Source: an uncultured Anaerolineaceae bacterium
Lineage (GTDB): Bacteria; Chloroflexota; Anaerolineae; Aggregatilineales; Phototrophicaceae
NCBI GenBank assembly: GCA_964556745.1
Contig: CAZKXW010000007.1
Span: forward strand, 21,028-85,027
Length of the DNA: 64,000 bases
Reading direction: 5' to 3'
Both the position numbers and the translations under genes were made by a program. The notes below the pieces were generated by a model. That model did not search any database and was not told the origin of the DNA. It saw nothing but the letters and a program-made list of their open reading frames with translations. The number at the start of each line of letters is the position of its first letter. Position 1 is the stretch's first letter. Positions 4,745 to 23,402 of the stretch are shown here, piece by piece.

Positions 4745-5683
4745 ATGTATCTGGCTATCGACTTTGGGGGGACGCGGACGCGGGTAGGCTGGTTCTCGGC
4801 GGCGCTGAGTCTGCTGCAGCGGGCAGAAGCGCCTTCGCAGATTGAAGAGCCACCGGAAGCGGTGATCGCGCGGATCATCGCGCTGGCGCAGTCGGTTGTG
4901 CCGCCGGGCGAGATGCCCAGTGCCACGGGCCTCTGCGGGCCGGGGGCACAGGCCTACACAGGAGTCATCCTCAACGCGCCGACGCTGCCGGGCTGGGAAC
5001 GAGTCCCACTGGCGGAGCCGATCAGCGCGGCCTTCGGCGGCGTTCCGACCTTCATGGAGAATGATGCCAATCTGGCGGCGCTGGCCGAATACCACTTCGG
5101 GGCGGCGCAGGGCTGCGATCCGGCGCTGTACCTGACGGTCAGCACCGGGATCGGCGGCGGCGCGGTGATTGGCGGGAAGCTGTTCAAGGGTTGGCGTGGG
5201 TTGGCAATCGAGCCGGGACATATTCCGTTCGTCATGCCGGATGGGGGCATCCTCGATCTGGAACGGCTGGCATCGGGGACGGCTATTGGGCGGCTGGCGC
5301 GGGAACGGCTGGCGGCGACGGATAGGCCGTCGGCGCTGCGCGGTCTGGCGCGGGTGGATGGCAAGGCCGTGGGAGAAGCCGCGCGGGATGGCGATGGGCT
5401 GGCGCGGGAGATAATCGAGGAGGCGGGGCGCTGGCTGGGGCTGGGATTGGTAACGCTGGCGCATCTGTTCAATCCGCAGGTGATCGTGCTGGGGGGCAGC
5501 GTGGCGCTGTTGGGTGAGCTGATTCTCCAACCCGCGCGGGAACAGTTGGCCGCGCATCTGTTTGACCCGGCGTTCAACGATCCCGATCTGCTGCGGCTGG
5601 CGGCGCTGGGCGATGATGGGGGTTTGACGGGAGCGGCGCTCTATGCCCGCGCCCGGCTTCAGGAGACGCGGTTGGCGGATTGA
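4745..5683 (+). CDS. ROK family sugar kinase (glucokinase-like)
   Basis: Motifs IDFGGT, ENDANLAALAE, STGIGGG, EPGH and NPQVIVLGG. Confidence 0.9.
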   Translation: MYLAIDFGGTRTRVGWFSAALSLLQRAEAPSQIEEPPEAVIARIIALAQSVVPPGEMPSATGLCGPGAQAYTGVILNAPTLPGWERVPLAEPISAAFGGVPTFMENDANLAALAEYHFGAAQGCDPALYLTVSTGIGGGAVIGGKLFKGWRGLAIEPGHIPFVMPDGGILDLERLASGTAIGRLARERLAATDRPSALRGLARVDGKAVGEAARDGDGLAREIIEEAGRWLGLGLVTLAHLFNPQVIVLGGSVALLGELILQPAREQLAAHLFDPAFNDPDLLRLAALGDDGGLTGAALYARARLQETRLAD

Positions 5684-5692
5684 TCCGCGATC

Positions 5693-6577
5693 CTAGAAGA
5701 GCAGCTCCATTTCCGTGCGGCGGAACATCTCGATATAGCCCATCTGCTGGTAGATCGGCCAGGAGAGTTCGTGCAAGGGCAGATTCTCGATCTTGGTGTC
5801 CTGTTCAGGATGGGTGCGGTGAAGCGCGTAGAGCAGATTGCGCATCACCTCATCGCGCGCGAGGGGGGGGGTCTTGGTGACGACGTGGGTGATCTCGAAG
5901 GGGGTGAATTGATAGACCAGCCAGCCGGTATAGCCGTTGGGCAGACGCACCTTGATGCCCTGGAGGTTGGTCAGTTTGACCAACGAGGCGTTTTCCGTCA
6001 CCCAAGAGGCGCTGCCGGTGCGCTCGGAAAGGCAGGCATAGACCTCTTCACGATCCATCTGGCGGATGACCGAACCGGGCGTGGGCGGGGTATCCGGCAG
6101 GGGGGCAGGCGGGCGGCGGATAACCAGCAGGTCACGCACGTCCCGAAAGCCCATTTTCACGAAGAGGCTGTGCGCCGGGATATTGCCCTGGATGACTTCG
6201 AGCTGAATCAGGCGCGGGTAGTAGTGTTGGGCAGCGTCGATCATCAGGCGCATGAGGAATTGGCCCATATTGCGGCCGCGCCGCTCCGGGATGACACCGA
6301 GGCGGGTGATCCAGGCGCGGTCGCCGCGCAGGCCTAACATGCCCAGCCCGGCCACCTGCCCCTGCGAGTCAAAGATGACCGGGGAATCGTCCAGGTTGAT
6401 GTCATAGGTGCGGATGTAAGACTGCATCCGCTTGGCATTCATCGGCATCGGCACAATGTAATCGACGCGCGTATGGTTATAAATGTCGGCCAGTTCTTCC
6501 GCGCTGAAACTGCTGGCAGGCACGTGGTCGTAGCAGGGTTCGTGGGTGGTCACGGGCGGCGGTCCAACGTCATGCAT
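5693..6577 (-). CDS. GNAT family N-acetyltransferase (N-terminal GNAT plus a degenerate second domain)
   Basis: Acetyl-CoA motif GVIPERRGRNMG and LEVIQGNIPAHSLFVKMGF; last gene of the signalling operon. Confidence 0.85.
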   Translation of the reverse strand: MHDVGPPPVTTHEPCYDHVPASSFSAEELADIYNHTRVDYIVPMPMNAKRMQSYIRTYDINLDDSPVIFDSQGQVAGLGMLGLRGDRAWITRLGVIPERRGRNMGQFLMRLMIDAAQHYYPRLIQLEVIQGNIPAHSLFVKMGFRDVRDLLVIRRPPAPLPDTPPTPGSVIRQMDREEVYACLSERTGSASWVTENASLVKLTNLQGIKVRLPNGYTGWLVYQFTPFEITHVVTKTPPLARDEVMRNLLYALHRTHPEQDTKIENLPLHELSWPIYQQMGYIEMFRRTEMELLF

Positions 6578-6607
6578 ATTGTTCTCTTGAGTCCCCCGGC
6601 AAAGTCG

Positions 6608-7072
6608 CTATCCGGCGTTGGGGCTGGACGTATCCTCGGATGATGGCGCGGCAGGTATTTGGGCATCCTTCGGCGGCGCGTCTGGCGATGAGGCCAGTTC
6701 TGCCGCCGGCGGGGAGATAAACGCCTTGACCTGTTCGGCGAAGCGGCGGGTATCGATGGGCTTGGTGATGACGCCATCGCAGCCGTAGGCCTTGGCCATC
6801 TCGGCGACGCGGTCTTCCGGCCAGGCGGTAAAGGCCACCACCTTGACCTGCTTCAAGGCCGCCCGCTGGCGCAGCATCCCGACGATGGTCTGGCCGTCGA
6901 TATCGGGCAGGCCCATATCGACCAGCACGACATCAGGCGCGTCGGCGAAGACCTGCATCAGACCGTCTTCGCCGTTATCGGCCACACGGACATCGTGTCC
7001 GGCGTGCTGCAACAGTTTTTCAGCCAACCGCGCGTTGTTCGGATTATCCTCGATGATGACGATCCGGCTCAC
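6608..7072 (-). CDS. single-domain response regulator (CheY/DivK-like)
   Basis: IEDN, VDMGLPDIDG, AFTA and TKP; Pro/Ala-rich tail. Confidence 0.92.
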   Translation of the reverse strand: MSRIVIIEDNPNNARLAEKLLQHAGHDVRVADNGEDGLMQVFADAPDVVLVDMGLPDIDGQTIVGMLRQRAALKQVKVVAFTAWPEDRVAEMAKAYGCDGVITKPIDTRRFAEQVKAFISPPAAELASSPDAPPKDAQIPAAPSSEDTSSPNAG

Positions 7073-7120
7073 GCCCCTGCTCCTTACTTCGCTTCCGGGC
7101 AGAACAGCTCGCGCCTGATT

Positions 7121-9238
7121 TTATTGTAATGCATCTTCGATGACGTACAGGAATTCGCGTCGATTGAGAGTCCCTTTTTCCAGGATGGAAACCGCCTGTG
7201 CTCTGAGCTGATGGCGCTCCTCAGGATCCAAGGCTTTGGCAGAGATGACCACCACCGGGATGTCGCGCAGCGCGCGGTCGTGCTTGAGGGTGTCCAATAC
7301 GGTCAAGCCGTCTATTTCCGGCAGCATCAGGTCAAGCAGGATCAAGTCCGGTCGATGCTGGTGGACAGCCTTGAGGCCATCGCGCCCATTCGAGGCTTCC
7401 AGGATGCGGATGTTACCCTGGCTGCTCAGCAGGCGGCGCGCCAAGCGCATATCGTGGGGATTATCCTCGATGATGAGGATGGTTGGCGAGTCCACTGCGG
7501 GGGCGTGGGACTTCGCGGACTCCTGTGCCAGGTCTTGGGATGGCTGGACCGGCGCGCCGGGCAGTTGATGGCCGAGCGCGGCGACAACCTGTTCGAGAAG
7601 ATGGCGGCTGTCGGCCTCGCCCTTCGACCAGATTACTTCGGTGTATTCGTGCAGCAGGCGATCTTCCTGCTCGCTGAGGTTGCGGGCGGAGGCAACGATC
7701 ACCTTGATCCCGGCAGTATCCGGGCTGCGCTTGAGGGTCTCCAGCAGCGTGAAGCCGTCCATCTCCGGCATGGTCAGGTCGGTGATGATGAGGTCGGGGC
7801 GGTGGTCGTGGAGGAGCTGGAGCGCTTCCAGGCCGCTGCCGGCTTCATAGATGCGGTAGTTTTTGCAGCGCTGAAGCAGTTTGCGGATCAGGCGGCGGTC
7901 TTTGGGGTTGTCATCGACGACCAGGATGCTGGTCACCTGCTCGTCGAGGCTCTGGATGGCAGCATCCAGCCCTTCGGTCAGGCTGTAGCGCTCGGCCTGC
8001 GCTCCCATACCGTGAAGCTGCAAATCCAGCACATAGCGGTCGCCGAGGATGTGACTCTCGGCGCTGAAGGTGTGGCCGGAGCCGTTGACGACCACGGTTT
8101 CGTCCGGGCGGATCGTCCCGTCAGTGAGCATCTGTTCCAACCCGGCGAAGGCGACCGCTGTGGCAGGTTCGACCGAAATGCCGGCTTTGCTCGCCAGACG
8201 GCGCATGGCGTCGAAGGTGCGGCCGTCCTCGGCAGCGATCATCACCCCACCGTTGGACAGCACGGCCTGGCGCAGCAGGCTGTAGCTGAAGCCCGGATCG
8301 CCAGTCGCCAGCACGGCGATGAGGGTCTGGGGGATGACCGGGGTAGCTTTGGCTTGCCCGGCCTGGAACGCCGCCACCATTGGGGCGCAGCCGGCGGCCT
8401 GGACGATGCCGAGTTTAGGCATCTGCGCGATGAAGCCCATCTGGAGGAGTTCGCTGAAGCCCTTCCAGACCCCCAACGGGCCGATGCCGCCGCTGACCGC
8501 CTGAATGTACCAGTCGGGAGCGCGCCAGCGTCCGGAGGAATCCGGCCCCAGCGCTGCGCCCAACTGCTCGGCAATCTCGAAGGCCAGCGTCTTCATGCTC
8601 TCTTTGCCGGGGATGGATTTGGCGCCCTGGTCGAAGTACAGCCCTTTGCGGCGGGCGAACTCAGCGGCGACGTGTTTGGTTTCGTCATACGTTCCAGAAA
8701 CCTTGACGACCTCAGCGCCGTAGAGGGCGGCCTCGCGCATTTTCTCAGCCGGGACCTGGCTGGTCACGAACAGCCACAGGCGAATGCCGGCGCGGGCACA
8801 GTAGGCGGCGTAGGCGGCCCCAGCGTTACCGGTCGAGGCCAGTACACACTCATCGATCCCGGCGCGCCGCAGGGCGGTCACCGAGAGGGCCGCCTGCCGG
8901 TCTTTGAAGGAACTGGTCGGTTCCTGACGTTCGTCTTTCATGAACAGATGCGGATGGTTGAACAGCCGTTCGTAGTTGTAGAGGCGCGTCAGCGAGGTTC
9001 CGCCTTCGCCCAGGGTGATTTCAGGCTCAGGTTCGCTCAGCGGCAGCAGTTCGCTGTAGCGCCAGAGCGAGCGTCCGCGTTCAATCAGAGCAGCGGGCCA
9101 GAGACCCGCCGCCGTTTGGAGGTCGTAGCGCGCGTCCAACCAGGGCGAGCCGCAGCAGGCGCAGGCTTTGGCCATGGGGTCGGGCGGCATCGTGTGCCCG
9201 CATTCCAGGCACACGATGCGCTCGAATAACGATGTCAT
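7121..9238 (-). CDS. threonine-synthase-like PLP enzyme (fold type II) with an N-terminal Zn ribbon, fused to two C-terminal receiver domains
   Basis: CLEC...CACC ribbon; PTSSFKDR (PLP Lys); ASTGNAG; EPATA; REC1 VDDN...TDLTMPEMDG; REC2 IEDN...LDLMLPEIDG. Confidence 0.9.
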   Translation of the reverse strand: MTSLFERIVCLECGHTMPPDPMAKACACCGSPWLDARYDLQTAAGLWPAALIERGRSLWRYSELLPLSEPEPEITLGEGGTSLTRLYNYERLFNHPHLFMKDERQEPTSSFKDRQAALSVTALRRAGIDECVLASTGNAGAAYAAYCARAGIRLWLFVTSQVPAEKMREAALYGAEVVKVSGTYDETKHVAAEFARRKGLYFDQGAKSIPGKESMKTLAFEIAEQLGAALGPDSSGRWRAPDWYIQAVSGGIGPLGVWKGFSELLQMGFIAQMPKLGIVQAAGCAPMVAAFQAGQAKATPVIPQTLIAVLATGDPGFSYSLLRQAVLSNGGVMIAAEDGRTFDAMRRLASKAGISVEPATAVAFAGLEQMLTDGTIRPDETVVVNGSGHTFSAESHILGDRYVLDLQLHGMGAQAERYSLTEGLDAAIQSLDEQVTSILVVDDNPKDRRLIRKLLQRCKNYRIYEAGSGLEALQLLHDHRPDLIITDLTMPEMDGFTLLETLKRSPDTAGIKVIVASARNLSEQEDRLLHEYTEVIWSKGEADSRHLLEQVVAALGHQLPGAPVQPSQDLAQESAKSHAPAVDSPTILIIEDNPHDMRLARRLLSSQGNIRILEASNGRDGLKAVHQHRPDLILLDLMLPEIDGLTVLDTLKHDRALRDIPVVVISAKALDPEERHQLRAQAVSILEKGTLNRREFLYVIEDALQ

Positions 9239-9245
9239 TGTCACC

Positions 9246-12200
9246 TCAGTTCACGACGGGCGTCGTCTGCGTAATGCGTTTGCTGACGGGCAGCGTGAAC
9301 CAGAAGGTGGAGCCGGCGCCCTTTTCGCTTTCAACGTAGATTTCACCGCCGTGCATGTGGATCAAGTGGCGGGTGATGACCAGCCCCAGGCCGGTTCCGC
9401 CGGCGCGGCGGGTCGCTGAACCATCCACCTGATGGAACTGCTGGAACAACCCCTTCATCTCGTCGGGGGTCATGCCAATGCCGCTGTCCTTGACGCGGAT
9501 AATCACCTGCCGGTCCTGGTCGTATTCCAGTTCGACGCGCACTTCACCCTGTTCGGTGAACTTGATGGCGTTGTTAACCAGGTTGAGGATGATCTGGCGC
9601 ATCCGCACGGGATCGCCCGTTACAGCCGGGATGTCGTTGAGCGGTTCGATGTTCAGTTCGATCCCCTTGTTCTTGGCCAGGATCGCGCAGGTGTTATGGA
9701 CGTCTTCCATGACCTGCATCAGGTTGGCTTCGCGGCGGTCGATCCGCATCTGGCCGGCTTCGATCTTCGCCAGATCGAGGATGTCGTTGATGATCGAGAG
9801 CAGGTGCTTGCCGCCGCTGTGGATGGCTTGCACGTCTTCGATGGCTTCTTCGGACAGGTCGCCGTCGATACCGTCGATCAGCACTTCGGCATAGCCGATG
9901 ATCGAGTTCAGCGGCGTCCGCAGTTCATGGCTCATGTTCGCCAGGAACTGGGACTTGAGGCGGTCCAGTTCGCGCAGGCGTTGGGCGGTCTGCTCCTGTT
10001 CCTGGAAGGCGCGGGCGTTTTCGACCGCCACGGCGATCTGGTCGGCGAGCGCAGTCTTGACGCGCACATCTTCACTGCTGAAGCGGCCAATGATGCTGGC
10101 CTGCACGTCCAGCACGCCGATTACCCGGTCGCCGACGATGAGCGGCAGCGCCAGTTCGGATTTGGTCTCCGGCAGCAGGGGGTTTGGCAGGAAGTCGGGT
10201 TCCTGGGTGACATCGTTGGAGATGACGCCCTGCCGGGTACGGGCGGCACGGGCGACCAGGCTGTGTTCGCGGCCCAGCGGGATGGCGTGGTTTCTGGACT
10301 TCATCGTTTGGCCGGCTTCACCCGCGCCTGCCGCCAGCACGAGGTTCTGGCCTTCTTCGTCCAGCAGGTAGACATGCGCGTGATAGAGATCGAAACGTTC
10401 TTTGGTGAGATCGACCACGGCTTGGAGCAGATCATCCAGGTTAAGCAGCGTGGTAGCAGCCGCGCTCACCTGGGCGACCGTTTCCAGTTCGGCGGCGCGC
10501 TGGCTGATCTCCCGCGTCAGATAGAGCCGTTCCAGGGCGACCGCGGCCTGTTCGACCGCTGCGCGGAAGATGCGGCGGTCGCGCTCGGTGAAGGAGTATG
10601 GCTCTGGAGAAGAGATGTTGATCGATCCATGCTGGTGGTGCTGGATGTGGATGCCGGAGGCCATTAGGCTCATCACGCCGGCGTTGTGGTAGACGGCGCG
10701 GGTCATTTCGTCCAGCGTGGGATCGGCGGCAGTGTTTTCGATGAAGGTCTCGTCCTGATCGGTCGAGAACAACGGTGAGCCGCTGACATCCAGCGGGACC
10801 TCGATGCCGGCCATCGACGAGCCATCCGCGCGTTTATCGGCGATGACGCGGTACATGGTTAGGCTGCCATCGGCGTCGCGGATCAGGTCGCCGAAGGTGA
10901 CATTGGCGTTCGGCATGGGCGCGACATGGCTGGCGAACGTATCGACGATGGTTTGCACATCGGATGCTTCGTTGAGCATGGCGCTGACCTGGTAGAGCGT
11001 ATCGGACTCTTCCTGGGCGTGTTTGCGTTCGGAAATGTCCGTGCGGATGGCGATGTACTGGTAGGGTTTGCCGTTTTCATCCATGAAGGGGACGATGGTC
11101 GATTCGACCCAGTAGAAGCTGCCATCCTTGCGCTGGTTACGGAATTCGCCCTTCCAGACATTCCCGTTCGCCAGTGTGACCCATAGATCGCGGATGTATT
11201 CCTTGGAGTGGTAGCCGGAGTTGATGATGCGGTGATCCTGGCCGAGGAGTTCCTCGCGCGAGTAGCCGGAGATTTCGCAGAATTTATCGTTGGCGTAGAG
11301 GATGATGCCGCGCTGGTCGGTGATGGCGACGATGGAGTGTTGATCGAGCGCGTCGCGGATGTCGCGCACCTGTTTTTGGGCTTGCTGCACGCGCTGGAAG
11401 GCGCGGGCATTTTCGACCGCCACGGCGATCTGGTCGGCCAGAGCCGCCTTGACGCGGATGTCCTCGTCCGTGAACCAGTTGGTCTGGTTGGCCTGCACGT
11501 CCAGCACGCCGATCAGCCGGTCGCCGACGATGAGCGGCAGCGCCAGTTCGGACCTGGTTTCCGGCAGCAGGGGGTTTGGTAGGAAGTCGGGTTCCTGGGT
11601 GACATCGTTGGAGATGACGCCCTGCCGGGTACGCGCAGCACGGGCGACCAGACTGTGTTCGCGGTTGAGCGGGATGGCATGACCCTTCTTCTTCATCTGC
11701 TGACCACGTTCACCCGCGCCTGCGGCCAGAGCGAGACGCTCGCCGGCGCTATCCAGCAGGTAGATGTGGGCATGGTACAGGCCGAAACGTTCTTTGGTCA
11801 GATCCGCCACGGCTTGCAGCAGGTGATCCAGGTCGAGGATAGTCGTGGTGGCCGCGCTCACCTGGGCGACCGTTTCCAGTTCGGCGGCGCGGCGAGTAAT
11901 TTCGTCGGCCTGGAAGCGCCGTTCCAGACCGATGGAGATCTGGTTGGCGACCGCGCGGCCCAGTTCGATCTCTTCTTCGGAGAAGGGATGCAGGGCGCGG
12001 GTGTAGTTGAGGAACACGACGCCACGCACCGCGTTGGAAGCCATAACTGGCAGAGCGATGACCGATTTGATGCGCAGCCGCTCTTCGATGAGTTCTTGCG
12101 GGAAGCCGGGATAGGCGCGGGTGTCATCGACCGGTTCGACATCGCGGTTGTTGAGGGCGGCCAGACCGTTCGGGTAGGTTTCGGCTGAGGCTACATAGGT

Positions 12201-14021
12201 CTGGGCGATCTGGCTGTCCATGGCGTCGCCAACGCCGTAGCGCCCGCGCCACATCCGGGCTGCGTAGTCGAATTCGGTATAGACCGCATTATCCGCATTA
12301 AACAGGTCGAGCGCGATGCGCATCGTACCTTCCAGCATCAGGTCAGTATCTTCCGCCACGCGGATGATTTCGGCGATCTGGCTGTTGGCCTGAAGGTCGC
12401 GGAGGCGGAATTGGGCGGCGCTGAACTGCTGGGCGTTCTGCACCGCCACACCGATCTGCCCAGCCATCAGCTCGAAGACGCGCGCGAGGTCTGAGGTGAA
12501 GTAGTTCGGGGTATCGCTCTGGACATCCAACACGCCGACCACGCGGCCGCGGGCGATCAACGGGGTCGCCAGTTCGGAGCGCGTCTCCGGCAGGAGGGGA
12601 TGTGGCAGGAAGGTCCGCGACTGCCGGACGTCGGCGACGATCACGCTCTTGCGATCGCGGGCGGCGGCGGCCACGATGCTCTGCATGTGATCGAGCTGAA
12701 TGCTGCGTTTCTCGCTGACCATCTGCTGGCCGATCTCGCCGGCGCCAGCGCTCAAGCGCAGCACCTTGCTGGAGTCATCCAGCAGGTAGATGTGGGCGTG
12801 ATACAGGTTGAAGGACTCTTTGGTCAGGTCAGAGATCGATTTCAGCAGGATGCCTGGATCGAGGATGGTCGCAACCTGCGAACTCACATCGGCAGCGACG
12901 AGCAGATCGCGGGTTCGAGCGGCTATGGTCGATTCCAAACTGGTGATCAACTGCTGGAGTTCTGCCGCCATGGCGCGGAAGGCTGCGGCTAGCAGACCGA
13001 TTTCGCCGCGCGAGTGGATCGGGATGGGGGTCGAGAAATCTCCGCTGCGAAGCCGCTGGGCAGCGCCTGTCAACACCTGAACCGGCCTCATGATCTGTCC
13101 CGACAAAATGTAGATGATGATGGCCGCCACGACCGCGATCACCGCCACCAGCAGGGCCGTCCGCAGCGCTAGATCGTTCAACGGCGCGTCAATTTCGGCC
13201 ATCGGCAAACGGCCCACTGCGATCCAATCCTGCGAGCCGCTGAGCGGCACATAATTCATCAGCGATGCGCCAGATTCAACATCTTGCTCGACCAGGCTGC
13301 CGCTTTCGCCGCGCAGCGCCGCCTGTACCGACTGCATATTGCTCACATCGCTGAACAGGGCGCTGGGGTGGGAGTCGCCGACCACGCGGCCTTCACGGTT
13401 GGCGATAAAGACTTCGCCCGTCTGCCCGACTTTGGTCGAAGACACGATATCAGCGATAGACTGCTGATCGATATTGGCAGCGACCACGCCGACCAAGTGC
13501 CCGTCTTCATCCCGTATGGGCCCGGCCAGCGAAATGACGAACCGCTGGTTCTGGGTGGAATAGTACAGGTCGGTGATAATGATGCTGTCCTGCTCCATCA
13601 CGCGCTGGAACCACATCTGATCGGTTTGGTCGCCCAAGGTGTTATCGGTCGCCGTGATGATCTGGCCGGTCGGATCGGTGAGATAGATGGCCGTGTAAAC
13701 GCCGTAGGCCTCTTTGACGGTATTCAGATAATCGCGTTTGGCTTCGAGGGTGTCTTCATCGCTGATGAGCGTCTCGGCTTTGGACATGACTTCGATATCG
13801 CCCAGGCGTTCGGCCAGGAAGCGCTGCACGTCGCTGCCAACGGCGGCGGCGATGCCCTGGACGCTGCTGCCGATCTGATCCTGAAGGGCAGCGCTCCACT
13901 GCCGGTAGGTTCGTATACCCATCAGGGTAACGGGGATCAGCGCAGCGAGGAGTGTAAAGGCAAAGATACGCCAGCGGAAACTGGCATACCAGGGGACGCG
14001 GTTCATTTCAACTGCGGTCAT
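9246..14021 (-). CDS. membrane sensor histidine kinase: TM-dCache-TM-HAMP-GAF-GAF-GAF-PAS-GAF-GAF-HisKA-HATPase
   Basis: Two TM helices flank a Cache-like region; HAMP (PVQVL...EIGLLA); GAF repeats; PAS (NDKFCEISGYSREELLG); H-box MSHELRTPL; NAIKFT, DSGIG and GTGLGL. Confidence 0.93.
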   Translation of the reverse strand: MTAVEMNRVPWYASFRWRIFAFTLLAALIPVTLMGIRTYRQWSAALQDQIGSSVQGIAAAVGSDVQRFLAERLGDIEVMSKAETLISDEDTLEAKRDYLNTVKEAYGVYTAIYLTDPTGQIITATDNTLGDQTDQMWFQRVMEQDSIIITDLYYSTQNQRFVISLAGPIRDEDGHLVGVVAANIDQQSIADIVSSTKVGQTGEVFIANREGRVVGDSHPSALFSDVSNMQSVQAALRGESGSLVEQDVESGASLMNYVPLSGSQDWIAVGRLPMAEIDAPLNDLALRTALLVAVIAVVAAIIIYILSGQIMRPVQVLTGAAQRLRSGDFSTPIPIHSRGEIGLLAAAFRAMAAELQQLITSLESTIAARTRDLLVAADVSSQVATILDPGILLKSISDLTKESFNLYHAHIYLLDDSSKVLRLSAGAGEIGQQMVSEKRSIQLDHMQSIVAAAARDRKSVIVADVRQSRTFLPHPLLPETRSELATPLIARGRVVGVLDVQSDTPNYFTSDLARVFELMAGQIGVAVQNAQQFSAAQFRLRDLQANSQIAEIIRVAEDTDLMLEGTMRIALDLFNADNAVYTEFDYAARMWRGRYGVGDAMDSQIAQTYVASAETYPNGLAALNNRDVEPVDDTRAYPGFPQELIEERLRIKSVIALPVMASNAVRGVVFLNYTRALHPFSEEEIELGRAVANQISIGLERRFQADEITRRAAELETVAQVSAATTTILDLDHLLQAVADLTKERFGLYHAHIYLLDSAGERLALAAGAGERGQQMKKKGHAIPLNREHSLVARAARTRQGVISNDVTQEPDFLPNPLLPETRSELALPLIVGDRLIGVLDVQANQTNWFTDEDIRVKAALADQIAVAVENARAFQRVQQAQKQVRDIRDALDQHSIVAITDQRGIILYANDKFCEISGYSREELLGQDHRIINSGYHSKEYIRDLWVTLANGNVWKGEFRNQRKDGSFYWVESTIVPFMDENGKPYQYIAIRTDISERKHAQEESDTLYQVSAMLNEASDVQTIVDTFASHVAPMPNANVTFGDLIRDADGSLTMYRVIADKRADGSSMAGIEVPLDVSGSPLFSTDQDETFIENTAADPTLDEMTRAVYHNAGVMSLMASGIHIQHHQHGSINISSPEPYSFTERDRRIFRAAVEQAAVALERLYLTREISQRAAELETVAQVSAAATTLLNLDDLLQAVVDLTKERFDLYHAHVYLLDEEGQNLVLAAGAGEAGQTMKSRNHAIPLGREHSLVARAARTRQGVISNDVTQEPDFLPNPLLPETKSELALPLIVGDRVIGVLDVQASIIGRFSSEDVRVKTALADQIAVAVENARAFQEQEQTAQRLRELDRLKSQFLANMSHELRTPLNSIIGYAEVLIDGIDGDLSEEAIEDVQAIHSGGKHLLSIINDILDLAKIEAGQMRIDRREANLMQVMEDVHNTCAILAKNKGIELNIEPLNDIPAVTGDPVRMRQIILNLVNNAIKFTEQGEVRVELEYDQDRQVIIRVKDSGIGMTPDEMKGLFQQFHQVDGSATRRAGGTGLGLVITRHLIHMHGGEIYVESEKGAGSTFWFTLPVSKRITQTTPVVN

Positions 14022-14024
14022 GGA

Positions 14025-15035
14025 TTACCTCGCCTGCTGCTGGAGAGATTGAACGAACGACGGATCGAGGATGGCCTGCACATCTACCGCCTCTTTAATC
14101 AGCCCAGTTTCCATGAAGATCTCCACGGTGATCTTTCCGCTGACAAAGGCGGAACCACTCTCTTGGTAGGCAGGATCCATGGCTGTGCTGTTCTCTGATG
14201 CCGAATACAGCCGCAGGAGCGTCATACTGTCGCGCATTTCATCCGGACTTAGGCCAATCCGTTCGCCGACCAGCGCATTGCCTTCTTCTGGATTGGCCGC
14301 CCACCAGACCTGGGCCGCGCTGAGAGCCTGGACAAAGCGCTGGATGCGATCCGGGTCGGCTTCGATGCTTTGCTGCTGGAAGGCAATGACATCGATGACC
14401 ATGCCGGGCAGTTCGGCGCTGCTTCCCAGAACAAATGCCCCCTGTTCGACAGCCTGTTGGGTGAAGGGGGCGTAAGTATGCCCAGCGTCAATCACGCCAG
14501 CAGCCAGCGCATCCGGAACTTCGCTGGGATCAAGGCTGATCATCGTGAAGTCCGACGCCTGAAGCCCCGCCTGTTTGAGAAGTGCCAGGGTGAAGACCTG
14601 TCCGAATGTGCCGTAGGCCATGCCAATCCGTTTGCCGCGCAGGTCAGTCAGACGCTCCACATAATTGGAGACGAGAACATCGCCGCCAATCGATTGATCG
14701 GTCAGCCAGACCACCCGAAGCGGCACGCCGGCCGCAGCCAGGGCAATGGCGTCGCTCAAGGTCGAGACACCACCATCAATGCGTTTCTCGGCAAAAGCCT
14801 GGGTGGTCTGAAAGCTCGCGTCAAACGGCACCAACTGCACATCGATGCCCTGCTCCTGGAAAAAGCCCCTGGCTTCGGCGATATAGAGGATGCCAAAGCC
14901 CGGCCAGGGATCGACGCCAACGGTGAGCGTATCGCGTGAGGCCTGAGCGGGGGCTTCTGCCTGGATCACCTGGACGCTGCCCGCCAGGGACAGCGCCGCG
15001 AGCGCAATCCACAGCGCGCTTTTCAATTTCGACAT
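14025..15035 (-). CDS. exported substrate-binding protein (SsuA/NMT1-THI5-like) with no adjacent permease
   Basis: Signal peptide; WPGFGILYIAEARGFF, DLRGKRIG and GVIDAGHTYAPF; ends 3 bp before the kinase start. Confidence 0.85.
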   Translation of the reverse strand: MSKLKSALWIALAALSLAGSVQVIQAEAPAQASRDTLTVGVDPWPGFGILYIAEARGFFQEQGIDVQLVPFDASFQTTQAFAEKRIDGGVSTLSDAIALAAAGVPLRVVWLTDQSIGGDVLVSNYVERLTDLRGKRIGMAYGTFGQVFTLALLKQAGLQASDFTMISLDPSEVPDALAAGVIDAGHTYAPFTQQAVEQGAFVLGSSAELPGMVIDVIAFQQQSIEADPDRIQRFVQALSAAQVWWAANPEEGNALVGERIGLSPDEMRDSMTLLRLYSASENSTAMDPAYQESGSAFVSGKITVEIFMETGLIKEAVDVQAILDPSFVQSLQQQAR

Positions 15036-15429
15036 ACCTTTCCATCCTACTGGTGAGAAACTAGTCATGCTGGGCCCTTGATCATGGCGACCGGAATGTT
15101 CGTAACTCATGGGGGAAGCATGCAAAGGCGAATGATTCTTGCGCGGGCGATCCGCCGGGTCACCCCTACGATGATTTGCCTTTGATTGGGTTTTCCCATC
15201 ATATGACGCAGCGCGGCGGTCATTCTGCCCTCACTCCTCGCCCTCAGGGAGAAGGGCGACCTGCGCGAGATACGTTCGTAATCTTCACAAATTGTAGGGG
15301 CATTCCTCTGCCGCAACCATTGAGACTGCCCCCGGCAAAGTTTGGATTACTTAACGAAGCATTGCGGGTTACAGATTCGTTCATGGGGGAACGCCGTGCC
15401 GCGGTCTTTGTGTTTTTGGTGGAAAACCG

Positions 15430-15438: not shown

Positions 15439-15484
15439 CCAACGAGTGATGAACGTCTTCCTTGTGGGTGCAGGAGAATTTGTC

Positions 15485-15856
15485 GTGGCGAAGTCACGAA
15501 CTGAACAACTTGTCGAACGCCTGCGCGATTTGCAGGCCAGCTCCGGTGACGTCGAAGCGGCCGCCATCGTCAGCGTGGATGGCTTGAGCATGGCCTCTTC
15601 GCTGCCCGGCCACATCGAAGAAGATCGTGTCAGCGCGATGTCTGCCGCCATGCTCTCGCTGGGCGAACGAATTTCATCGGAATTGGGACGGGGCGGCTTG
15701 GAACAGGTCATGGTCAAAGGCGAAAACGGCTATGTCATCCTGACGGCCGTTGGCGAAGAAGCCGTGCTGACCGTCCTGGCCCGCAAGGAAGCTAAGCTCG
15801 GTTTGATCTTTCTGGACGTCACCCGCACTGTGGATGCGCTCGAGCAGCTTGTGTGA
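15485..15856 (+). CDS. roadblock/LC7 (MglB-like) protein
   Basis: GTG after CAGGAG; AAIVSVDGL..AS, VSAMSAAMLSLGER and KLGLIFLD. Confidence 0.9.
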   Translation: MAKSRTEQLVERLRDLQASSGDVEAAAIVSVDGLSMASSLPGHIEEDRVSAMSAAMLSLGERISSELGRGGLEQVMVKGENGYVILTAVGEEAVLTVLARKEAKLGLIFLDVTRTVDALEQLV

Positions 15857-16494
15857 TCCAAGACGTTGTGCTGCAAACCAGTCATCTGTATTACCCCAAC
15901 CGAATCGCGCGCTATTTCTTCGACGCGATGGACGACGTGATGGGGCAGGTTGGCCTGAATGCGGTTCTGACTCTGGCCGGTCTCGATTCTTACGTGGGCA
16001 CACCGCCGCCGGATAATCTGAAGCGCGAATTTGACTTTGCGGCGATGGCCGCCCTCAACATTGCCCTGGAACAGACTTACGGCACACGCGGCGGCCGGGG
16101 CATCGCCATGCGAATTGGGCGGGCCTGCTTCTCGCAGGGGATGCGAAGTTTCGGCGCGCTGGCCGGGATCAGCGACCCGGCGTTCCGCGCCAAGCCGCTG
16201 GAAGAATGTGGCGCCTTGGGGCTGAAGGCCCTGGCGCACGTCTTCAACACCTTCAGCGACCAGGGATCGCGCGTCGAAATCGACCAGACGACCTACCGCT
16301 TCATCGTCAATCCCAGCCCGGTAGCCTGGGGCCGCACCTCGGATAAACCGGTGTGTCACGCGCTGGCCGGCATCATCCAGGAGGCCATGCGCTGGGCATC
16401 CAACGGCCGCGAATACTATGTTTTCGAGACGGCCTGCCGCGCCTGCGGCGAGCCGGAATGCGTGTTTACCATCAACAAAACACCCATCGCCTGA
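15853..16494 (+). CDS. V4R (4-vinyl reductase) domain protein
   Basis: KPVCH...GII...ETACRACGEPECVF; GTGA overlap with the upstream stop codon. Confidence 0.88.
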   Translation: MIQDVVLQTSHLYYPNRIARYFFDAMDDVMGQVGLNAVLTLAGLDSYVGTPPPDNLKREFDFAAMAALNIALEQTYGTRGGRGIAMRIGRACFSQGMRSFGALAGISDPAFRAKPLEECGALGLKALAHVFNTFSDQGSRVEIDQTTYRFIVNPSPVAWGRTSDKPVCHALAGIIQEAMRWASNGREYYVFETACRACGEPECVFTINKTPIA

Positions 16495-16511
16495 AACTGA
16501 AGGGGGCCAGC

Positions 16512-17369
16512 GTGACCGACAAGCCCACGATTCTGATCGTCGAGGATGACCTCGACCTGGCCGAGATGCTGAGCGCCTACTTCCGCGTCCAGAACTACGA
16601 GGTGCTGACGGCCGCTTGGGGCAAGGATGCCATCGAGATCAGCCAGGATGCCCGGCTGGCGCTGGTTGTCCTGGATATCCGGCTGCCGGATATTGACGGC
16701 TACGAAGTCTGCCGCCAGCTTCGCTCGCAGCGCCGCACCGAGAATGTGCCGGTCATCTTCCTGACCGAGCGGCGCGACCGCGTGGACAAACTCCACGGTC
16801 TGGAACTGGGCGTGGTCGATTACATCACCAAGCCCTTTGATGTTCAGGAACTGCGGCTGCGCGTTCGCAACGCCATCAGCCGGGCAGCCCGCCAGACCAA
16901 CACCAATCCCGTCACCGAGCTGCCCGAACCTCAACTGGTCGAAGAAAAGCTCAACAGCCTGGTCCTGGCCGACGATCCCTGGTCGCTGCTGCTGATTTCG
17001 GTGACGGGGTTGAGTACCTACCGCGAACGCTACGGCTTTGTGGCTGCCGACGATGTGATGCGGGCGATCACGCTGATGGTGCGGAATGCTGTCCGGGAGT
17101 TCGGGTTGGAGGACGATTTCATCGGCCATCTCGGACCCGAAGACTTTCTGATCGTCACCGGGCCGGAGCGCGTCCACTTGATCCGCCAGCGGGTCGAAAC
17201 CCGCGTCAGCCAATCCAGCGAGTATTTCTACCCGCTGCGGGATCGTGAAGAAGACGCGGCGCCGAACGTGATTGGCCTGCGCTTTGGCCGGGTGGACTCG
17301 GCAGCCCGCGCTTTCCAGGACGCCGCCGATCTGAAGCAGGCGCTTTTCGCTGACGCCGGTTTCGCTTAA
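16512..17369 (+). CDS. response regulator with a degenerate GGDEF domain
   Basis: REC (VEDD, LDIRLPDIDG, TKPF); NPVTELP, ERYGFVAADDVM, and GHLGPEDF in place of GG(D/E)EF. Confidence 0.88.
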   Translation: MTDKPTILIVEDDLDLAEMLSAYFRVQNYEVLTAAWGKDAIEISQDARLALVVLDIRLPDIDGYEVCRQLRSQRRTENVPVIFLTERRDRVDKLHGLELGVVDYITKPFDVQELRLRVRNAISRAARQTNTNPVTELPEPQLVEEKLNSLVLADDPWSLLLISVTGLSTYRERYGFVAADDVMRAITLMVRNAVREFGLEDDFIGHLGPEDFLIVTGPERVHLIRQRVETRVSQSSEYFYPLRDREEDAAPNVIGLRFGRVDSAARAFQDAADLKQALFADAGFA

Positions 17370-22726: not shown

Positions 22727-22880
22727 TCACACACTATCCTTCAAACAGCGACCGCCCAACGATAGCACAGCTTGAGGCGGGCGGCGAGGCTCAAGACAGT
22801 TCGTCCGCCCATTGCGCTCTCACAGCCGCCAGCCGCTCTGCGGTTCAATCTTACTATCTCCGATTATATATCGCAAAAGT

Positions 22881-23402
22881 AGACAAAATGTCACCCTAAC
22901 CCGCCCATTTTGTGCTACCCTGTATTTACGGCAGGGTAGGTACAGGCTTTTGCCCGTCCCCGCCTGACGCATCGCACCTTCACAACCTATCGCCTGCGAA
23001 TATCGCCATCCGTTGTTGTGGCAAGAATCACCGAGTTGCAGCTGCAACATTTTCAACATTTGCAACTTTTCGCCGATTTGCGCTGGCGGTATTTGCAGCG
23101 CTTCTGGCAGAACGCGGCTTACATTCAACGGCTTTGGCACAAAACTGCCGTTCCGCGCCTGCCGCCATTGCCGCCATTTGTGCCAGTTGGCCCGTCCGAC
23201 ACTGCCGACAACAACGACATTTCCGACAATTGGCCTTCTCTGGCTATCAGCTAAAAGCTAAAGGCTATCAGCTACACCGACAATTCTCAGGATTCTCACG
23301 TTCTCATTCTTATCATTTCTCTCATCGCCGCTGCCCGGAACATCCTGTATGCCTAAAAGCTGTCAGCTAAAATATAACCATAAACTATCAAATATTAATT
23401 TC
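22881..23402. repeat. dispersed modular intergenic repeat, copy B (most complete copy)
   Basis: Matches 2018-2340 and 63392-63955 in reverse complement; carries TGCAAC, TGCC, GACA, GCTA and TTCTCA short-repeat modules. Confidence 0.9.

Follow-up and report, generated by a model that had tools for sequence, protein, structure and literature searches.

A threonine synthase-like PLP enzyme with fused receivers and a receiver-acetyltransferase pair as candidate parallel targets of one sensor kinase in Anaerolineae

Five adjacent genes of an uncultured Anaerolineaceae bacterium (assembly GCA_964556745.1, here G000; contig CAZKXW010000007.1) encode a binding protein, a sensor kinase, a pyridoxal 5'-phosphate (PLP) enzyme of the threonine synthase (ThrC) fold fused to two receiver domains (REC1 and REC2), a stand-alone receiver and a GNAT acetyltransferase. 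They lie at positions 5693-15035 of the 64,000-nucleotide stretch that was analysed, hereafter the window, in which all positions are given. A first-pass annotation made from the letters alone had described five co-directional, tightly spaced genes and this layout was confirmed: all five open reading frames are on the minus strand, separated from one another by 3, 1-7, 48 and 30 bp. The enzyme gene has an alternative in-frame GTG at 9244. The genes and their parts are as follows.

14025..15035, minus strand: secreted binding protein of the NMT1/THI5-SsuA type (Pfam NMT1, E 3.6e-28; TIGR01728 at 146.7 bits, under its cut-off of 163.5)
9246..14021, minus strand: membrane sensor histidine kinase of 1591 aa (Pfam dCache_1-HAMP-five GAF and one PAS-HisKA-HATPase)
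7121..9238, minus strand: fusion of 705 aa, zinc ribbon + ThrC-fold PLP enzyme + REC1 + REC2 (Pfam PALP at residues 74-387 and two Response_reg stretches)
9152..9211, minus strand: zinc ribbon CxxC...CxxC of the fusion, Cys10, 13, 26 and 29 (invariant in 24 aligned sequences; pattern in 281/291 family members)
8903..8905, minus strand: Lys112, the PLP Schiff-base lysine (SFKDR; FKDRQ), aligned with the lysine in the SFKDRG motif of solved threonine synthases
7571..7930, minus strand: REC1 with Asp442/443, acceptor Asp487 (7778-7780), Ser517 and Lys539, all in invariant columns
7124..7483, minus strand: REC2 with acceptor Asp636 (7331-7333), Ser666 and Lys688, in invariant columns of the alignment of 24
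6608..7072, minus strand: stand-alone receiver of a GNAT-dedicated family, with Asp52 (6917-6919), Thr82 and Lys104 (Pfam and residue check)
5693..6577, minus strand: tandem-fold GNAT acetyltransferase of 294 aa (Pfam Acetyltransf_1, E 3.3e-11; acetyl-CoA motif RRGRNMG in the N-terminal half)

The PLP lysine and both phospho-acceptor aspartates, described earlier as intact, were checked as Lys112, Asp487 and Asp636, and the loop VSGGIG reads as had been reported. The kinase has its phospho-acceptor His1365 in the HisKA domain and a Pfam scan found no receiver domain in it, while the stand-alone receiver shows the motifs DLGLPDIDGQT, AFTAWP and YGCDG. The GC content of the five-gene region is close to that of the rest of the window, and a promoter and terminator scan gave counts at or under the shuffle level. 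The five genes had been read as one operon. Their order is real but they are not one conserved unit: they fall into three modules, consisting of the kinase with the PLP-REC enzyme, the stand-alone receiver with the GNAT, and the binding protein with the dCache domain, the last of which is present in a minority of loci.

The PLP-REC family is real and unstudied. Both PF00291 and PF00072 were found in 120 of 120 listed homologues (59-91% identity, at least 95% of the query covered), which are nearly full-length and thus rule out a frameshift, a chimera or an assembly artefact; the fusion is therefore not peculiar to one assembly, the case that the first-pass annotation had named as a refutation. 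Positions 5000-10047 of the window were also matched by one assembled contig with 0 differences, possibly the window's own source. A genome scan gave at least 592 relatives among at least 599 candidates. The best 80 of these loci supply all counts for "nearest loci" below, each count being the subset with enough room for the gene in question; locus flanks end at 10 kb, so that frequencies of upstream genes are lower bounds. By record title 76 of the 80 are Chloroflexota, two are called "bacterium" and two belong to other phyla, namely a cyanobacterium (L068) and a Bacteroidia bin (L072); mis-binning of these two is likely because L068 carries the full Anaerolineae gene order. Among 301 genomes of the phylum the family occurs in 34, 26 of them in the window's class, with a sharp boundary between its weakest member (E 7e-125) and the next ThrC-like hit (E 2e-65). 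In an even sample at class level it was found in 42 of 151 genomes; related genomes are not independent and we give no P value for co-occurrence. G000 itself has a paralogue with one receiver (PALP-REC, C84:1-3637, locus L009) at 53% identity, which lies behind a hybrid kinase with two receivers. Full-text literature searches for a ThrC-receiver fusion or for a pairing of receiver and GNAT returned no paper on either, although the supplements of response-regulator censuses could list the fusion.

The closest sequence and fold matches of the PLP domain are class I threonine synthases, with about 27-30% identity in the structure matches. The window protein falls under every NCBIfam ThrC cut-off (PRK08197, 270.9 against 303; TIGR00260, 133.8 against 167.1) as well as under that of cysteate synthase (TIGR03844, 111.5 bits against 324.9). 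For residue counts we compared 291 distinct fused members longer than 450 aa with 21 canonical ThrC of the same class, and numbered positions of the PLP domain on the Thermus ThrC sequence. On the cofactor side the family is conventional: the lysine motif FK[DA]RQ is present in 291/291 members and EP[AS] in 286/291, and the S[TA]GN loop is retained, as is the [ST]G that pairs with the pyridine nitrogen. The PLP domain is also the best conserved part of the protein, with a median identity of 70% against 56% for REC1 and 48% for REC2. Thr88, Asn154, Ser155, Arg160 and Asn188 of the Thermus enzyme are what we take to be the substrate-phosphate pocket of ThrC, and here the family departs from it. 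At the Arg160 position none of the 291 members has Arg (Gly in 147, Ala in 86, Ser in 50), compared with 21/21 canonical ThrC; the Thr88 position holds Ala, Val or Lys and Thr in 0/291 members, against Thr in 21/21. A near-invariant DxG stands where ThrC has its xNS stretch, the Asn154/Ser155 and Asn188 positions are changed, and the loop reads SGG[IML]GP in all 291 members as opposed to GN[AL]GN in all 21 canonical enzymes. Since the phosphate pocket has been rebuilt, O-phosphohomoserine and phosphoserine, the substrates named in the first-pass annotation, are disfavoured. We conclude that PLP is bound by this domain, which probably turns over an amino acid; that this would be O-phosphohomoserine is improbable.

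In a tree of 147 PLP domains, thinned of near-duplicates from 386, the fused members form one clade (support 0.98) with two receiver-less or partial representatives inside it, and this clade is nested among receiver-less relatives with SGGxGP, apart from both canonical ThrC and PRK08197-type proteins. The ten basal receiver-less relatives have no informative protein names, and a metagenome scan for stand-alone relatives otherwise gave fused members among the matches listed. One receiver-less member of the SGGxGP clade (L160:34-5624, and L161) is encoded among the NeuB and DegT-like genes of a glycan cluster, which may offer a lead to the chemistry of the family. A sub-clade without adjacent kinase or GNAT (L069, L071, L076, L078 and L079; enzyme gene at 10001-12139) shows a Lys that follows STGN and an altered DPGTT loop, residue changes hinting at a different substrate. 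At eight further loci (L094, L095, L097, L099, L186, L205, L225 and L237) a PRK08197-type ThrC-like gene follows enzyme and receiver in the place of the GNAT; the plain ThrC-like protein of L099 scores 576 bits with PRK08197, over the cut-off.

The gene content of relatives points in the same direction as the residues. The near-closed genomes G042 and G390 have a separate PALP/thrC-type gene beside thrB, and canonical ThrC stands beside thrB also in G031, G006 and G343; a search for homoserine kinase gave no thrB match in 20 of the 42 family genomes. A role as the housekeeping thrC was thus rejected, given the changed phosphate-pocket positions and the separate thrC that relatives keep with thrB. 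The separate housekeeping gene for which the first-pass annotation proposed a check exists in these relatives but none was shown in G000, where hom was found, no thrB scored over the cut-off and no other thrC was present among its 8 PALP genes. As this assembly is 94% complete its gene content is not decisive on thrC, and since thrB is missing too the thrB-thrC pair was probably unassembled or lost together. On residues, tree and gene content the fused enzyme is probably not a threonine synthase. A supply of O-phosphoserine by an SbnI/SerK-like kinase was considered as well and rejected as not specific, as the domain occurs in 55/151 genomes (25/42 with the family, 30/109 others).

The multi-GAF kinase and the PLP-REC enzyme are the core of the family. 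A kinase gene lies directly upstream of the enzyme gene in 56 of the 72 nearest loci where 1 kb or more is available, in 55/63 metagenome loci and in 19/20 loci picked by hand from the 301-genome survey. From this adjacency we infer a cognate pairing. Conservation of the acceptor Asp and of the Lys is 90% or more in REC1 (73 sequences), in REC2 (73) and in the single receivers of one-receiver members (101). The chain that carries the enzyme holds a receiver furnished with the acceptor Asp, the Thr/Ser, the Lys and the acidic pocket. A tree built from 126 receivers, 14 per class, places the fused receivers with those that end the adjacent hybrid kinases (support 0.85). The single receiver of one-receiver members has its orthologue in REC1 (0.90), whereas REC2 groups weakly with the terminal receivers of neighbouring hybrid kinases (0.77) and is, as judged from the tree, the later addition to the fusion. 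The window's clade combines a receiver-less kinase with a two-receiver enzyme, a pattern suggesting that a receiver may have moved from kinase to enzyme. In an AlphaFold model of the fusion each domain is folded, and the linkers have a predicted local distance difference test (pLDDT) score below 50.

Genome-wide, the partner of the PLP-REC family is an EamA transporter and not the GNAT. Orthologues of EamA (E<1e-45) are present in 37 of the 151 class genomes, comprising 36/42 with the family and 1/109 others, compared with 9/42 for close GNATs. The transporter gene lies within about 3 kb downstream in 33/48 one-receiver loci; in G000 the orthologue is found on C144, where a further gene with a receiver precedes it. 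At one-receiver loci a ParA-like ATPase or Methyltransf_19 gene frequently separates the hybrid kinase from a GAF membrane protein that has no kinase part (L096, L098, L100, L101, L103, L108 and L110; L104, L106, L179 and L194).

The second module is the stand-alone receiver and its GNAT. The conserved linkage of enzyme and GNAT proposed at first holds close to the window, where a GNAT is found within 2 kb downstream of the enzyme in 56/68 nearest loci, but does not extend over the class: close GNATs (E<1e-40) occur in 12/151 genomes, 9 of which have the enzyme, and only 3 of these 9 have the two genes adjoining. The constant neighbour of the GNAT is the stand-alone receiver, directly upstream of 70/71 close GNATs, most of these loci having been fetched via the enzyme, and of 8/9 GNATs at loci with no PLP-REC gene nearby. 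Receiver and GNAT therefore travel together also without the enzyme, and this pair and the kinase-enzyme pair are inherited separately. The stand-alone receiver forms a clade of its own in the receiver tree (support 0.999). A profile search, with up to 29 candidates scored per genome, found it in 10/151 genomes at E<=1e-42, in 10/10 cases beside a GNAT, 9 of these being already in the profile. No REC-GNAT fusion was seen among 120 listed homologues of near length or, as weak evidence, among 7993 longer candidates.

The model of the GNAT (pLDDT 91.7) shows a tandem fold of two lobes with an acetyl-CoA motif, and the sequence has weak similarity to RimI; the best structural match is MAB_4324 (Z 21.4, root mean square deviation 4.0, 279 residues aligned, 15% identity). 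Structure prediction of the receiver-GNAT complex gave a score of 0.78 against 0.00 for the best of 3 controls; the mark for this score is reached by 116/157 solved pairs and 2/215 mismatched pairs, counts that are only roughly valid with our own alignments. Contacts agree between runs to at least 94%, and the partner's pLDDT is at least 88. Residues 53-69 and 83-97 of the receiver, around Asp52 and including the invariant Gln61 and Tyr96, are predicted to face IVPMPMN, RRPP and Asp260 of the GNAT. Interface columns are better conserved than the remainder (0.82 against 0.57 in the GNAT, 0.85 against 0.63 in the receiver), and the interface motifs are missing from five distant GNATs that have no receiver directly upstream. 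The prediction supports binding of the GNAT by the stand-alone receiver; to our knowledge no complex of a receiver with a GNAT has been solved. In G236 and G404 the REC-GNAT pair is followed directly by a triple fusion of 913-918 aa (L147:3865-6621, minus strand; L151:12296-15037, plus strand) that combines a serine/threonine dehydratase-like PALP domain, a D-2-hydroxyacid dehydrogenase and an SbnI/SerK-like serine kinase. This is a second case of the present GNAT beside a PLP enzyme of fold type II, within one family only.

The third module is a minority add-on and probably one of several exchangeable inputs. In 3 of the 52 loci whose upstream flank reaches 7 kb or more, a binding protein and dCache domain of the window's type were found, each time as a pair and with dCache at least 35% identical; any NMT1-type protein was found in 9/80 nearest loci. 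The binding protein matches THI5, TauA and SsuA, and no ABC permease or ATPase gene lies beside it. It is likely an accessory ligand input to the kinase and a variable add-on. We tested the dCache_1AA motif (Y121, R126, W128, Y144 and D173 in PctA numbering; PMC8915833), for which R126A is reported to lower the affinity of PctA 61-fold and D173N to abolish amino-acid binding (PMC8915833). In the window's domain Gln135 aligns at R126 and Asn183 at D173; Trp137 and Tyr153 are kept and no Tyr aligns at 121. With Gln and Asn at the R126 and D173 positions, this domain is unlikely to sense a free amino acid.

We propose that one kinase has two parallel enzyme outputs that are controlled after translation and with no transcription factor, a reading to which we give a probability of roughly 0.55. 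The multi-GAF sensor kinase would phosphorylate receivers that switch two enzymes in parallel, the fused receivers acting on the PLP enzyme and the dedicated stand-alone receiver on the GNAT. Phosphorylation of REC1 would turn the PLP enzyme on or off. This enzyme may carry out a beta- or gamma-elimination or replacement on a free alpha-amino acid, with no phosphate anchoring of the kind used by ThrC, and EamA, encoded elsewhere in the genome, could carry the product or the substrate across the membrane. The receiver is predicted to dock on the IVPMPMN, RRPP and Asp260 surface of the GNAT through the loops around Asp52. Control of enzymes by phosphorylation is likely. Gene order, residues and distribution stand as observations and the binding as a prediction; phosphotransfer, the direction of control and the chemistry we infer.

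Several observations weigh against this proposal. No kinase lies directly upstream in 16/72 nearest loci, and ten of these that we inspected have unrelated neighbours. The receivers stand at the C-terminal end, opposite to their place in most response regulators, and the model of the fusion (pTM 0.54) has no enzyme-receiver contact and a linker between PALP and REC1 (389-434) with pLDDT below 50, so that it is silent on how enzyme and receiver are coupled. EamA adjoins 0/68 nearest loci of the window's own clade and may therefore serve the single-receiver paralogue only. As to the loss of ThrC chemistry, the C84 paralogue passes TIGR00260 (179.5 against 167.1), for which reason this cut-off is not decisive for the family, and Lys or Arg stands one residue past the lost Arg160 position in 250/291 members, a side chain that could still bind phosphate. 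Row-paired alignments taken from the same loci were the input for folding the receiver-GNAT complex. Finally, one close GNAT (G359, L148) has the interface motifs with no detectable partner receiver, and since this orphan keeps them the motifs may be catalytic.

Other arrangements of the same parts can be imagined. The PLP domain might be an input instead of an output, an amino-acid aldimine altering the uptake or draining of kinase phosphate by the receivers and so tuning the receiver-GNAT branch. An N-terminal domain followed by C-terminal receivers is indeed the layout of a hybrid sensor, and the kinship of the fused receivers with kinase-terminal ones, the receiver-less kinase beside a two-receiver enzyme in the window's clade and the loss of the ThrC side-chain pocket would all fit. 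But catalytic and cofactor residues are kept in 291/291 members in a domain better conserved than its receivers, the tight co-occurrence with a transporter suits an enzyme that turns over a metabolite, and 33/42 family genomes have no close GNAT to tune; we regard an input role as unlikely, if the least so of the alternatives. The first-pass annotation favoured a serial scheme in which the GNAT acylates the PLP product and the locus senses the result as an autoinducer through its own binding protein or dCache. The downstream GNAT of most nearest loci speaks for it, as do its linkage in a sister clade (L154, L227) and its retention despite rearrangement in L102, the enzyme being present in 9/12 genomes with a close GNAT against 33/139 others, the small-molecule acetyltransferases among tandem GNATs and the second PLP fold-II enzyme behind the REC-GNAT pair of G236 and G404. 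Both of its steps have nevertheless lost ground: acylation, with close GNATs in so few enzyme genomes, the receiver as the constant neighbour of the GNAT and 3/12 GNAT genomes with no enzyme at all, two of them nearly closed (G404 and G418), and sensing, with the rarity of the binding protein-dCache input and the replaced R126 and D173. This serial pathway is poorly supported and somewhat less probable again than an input role.

A second, signal-regulated threonine synthase converting O-phosphohomoserine to threonine would explain why threonine synthases are the top sequence and fold matches and why one paralogue exceeds TIGR00260; it could draw on the nearby Lys as a substitute for the lost Arg and on the want of any other thrC among the PALP genes of G000. 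It is hard to reconcile with changes at every phosphate-pocket position, with family genomes that give no thrB match and with the thrC-type genes next to thrB in five relatives, and in G000 thrB is missing along with thrC; we hold it improbable. More improbable still is that the GNAT is a protein acetyltransferase acting on the receiver or the PLP enzyme, as a feedback instead of on a metabolite. The alpha1-alpha2 loop of GNATs is the usual acceptor-binding place and is covered by the predicted interface, and protein acetyltransferases are among the tandem-fold matches, next to the weak RimI similarity; however, the listed interface residues include no receiver lysine, and the only invariant lysine is the structural Lys104.

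Among known systems class I ThrC (PDB 1UIM/1V7C, 2ZSJ, 2D1F and 6CGQ/6NMX; TIGR00260) shares with the family the fold-type II PLP fold, the SFKDR lysine, the STGN loop and the EPA glutamate, and differs in that the family has DxG, SGGxGP and ATGxP motifs, C-terminal receivers and linkage to a kinase instead of thrB. PRK08197-type ThrC-like proteins have the zinc ribbon too but keep the Arg. Cysteate synthase (TIGR03844; CapA2, PDB 9K3C; structural match rank 17) is likewise a ThrC-derived PLP enzyme with a changed reaction, at 20% identity and with no receiver. Receiver outputs are mostly DNA-binding or second-messenger domains. Described response regulators with enzymatic output include CheB, PleD/WspR and fusions of receivers to KaiC, a BcsA-like glycosyltransferase and thioredoxin reductase; they resemble the present protein in joining receiver and enzyme, whereas here the output is a PLP amino-acid enzyme and the receivers, which belong to the kinase-terminal type, lie at the C-terminus. 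An archaeal census reports fusions of receivers to metabolic enzymes as a known kind with narrow phyletic range; its main text has 0 occurrences of ThrC or PALP (PMC5847659). For the second module the nearest parallel is EpsW of Myxococcus xanthus, a single-domain response regulator reported to activate the enzyme EpsZ, which it binds and is proposed to switch after translation (PMC12802240); here the target would be a soluble tandem GNAT, as predicted from synteny and one structure model. Tandem GNATs such as MAB_4324 (7Q3A), the Sphaerobacter protein (3TT2), clavulanate Orf14 (2WPX) and MshD (1OZP) have the same two-lobed fold (Z 21.4-15.7), but at 13-19% identity and with a dedicated receiver partner in our case their substrates are not transferable.

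If two parallel outputs are the correct reading, one signal likely switches two enzymes directly and not genes. A PLP enzyme with a rebuilt active site, putatively under receiver control, is present in more than 1/4 of the sampled genomes of a lineage frequently encountered in sludge, sediments and hot springs, and with such a family in 42/151 genomes hundreds of "threonine synthase" annotations are probably wrong. Most single-domain receivers have no concrete predicted target, and the stand-alone receiver described here, which has one, is a rarity. Both branches are soluble, so that the target of the lone receiver and the product of the enzyme are directly testable in E. coli. It is tempting to go further and see a transcription-free circuit in which one kinase switches a new PLP family and a receiver-gated acetyltransferase, and in which an exported amino-acid-derived signal is made and modified, with EamA as transporter. 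This extension is tentative and on balance doubtful; if true, it would add a new response-regulator output class, a new PLP reaction and the first small-molecule signal for an abundant, mostly uncultured Anaerolineae lineage.

Next to the five genes a divergent operon on the plus strand (15440-17369) encodes a Roadblock/LC7 protein, a V4R protein and a receiver with a degenerate GGDEF domain, possibly a second signalling unit that shares the intergenic region. Dispersed intergenic repeats, presumably REP- or MITE-like, lie at about 1980-2634, 22727-23400 and 15105-15205 of the window; their BLAST hits in the genome number 70, 105 and 72, spread over 43, 65 and 53 contigs, respectively. The repeat letters GTAGGGGC/GCCCCTAC occur 180 times.

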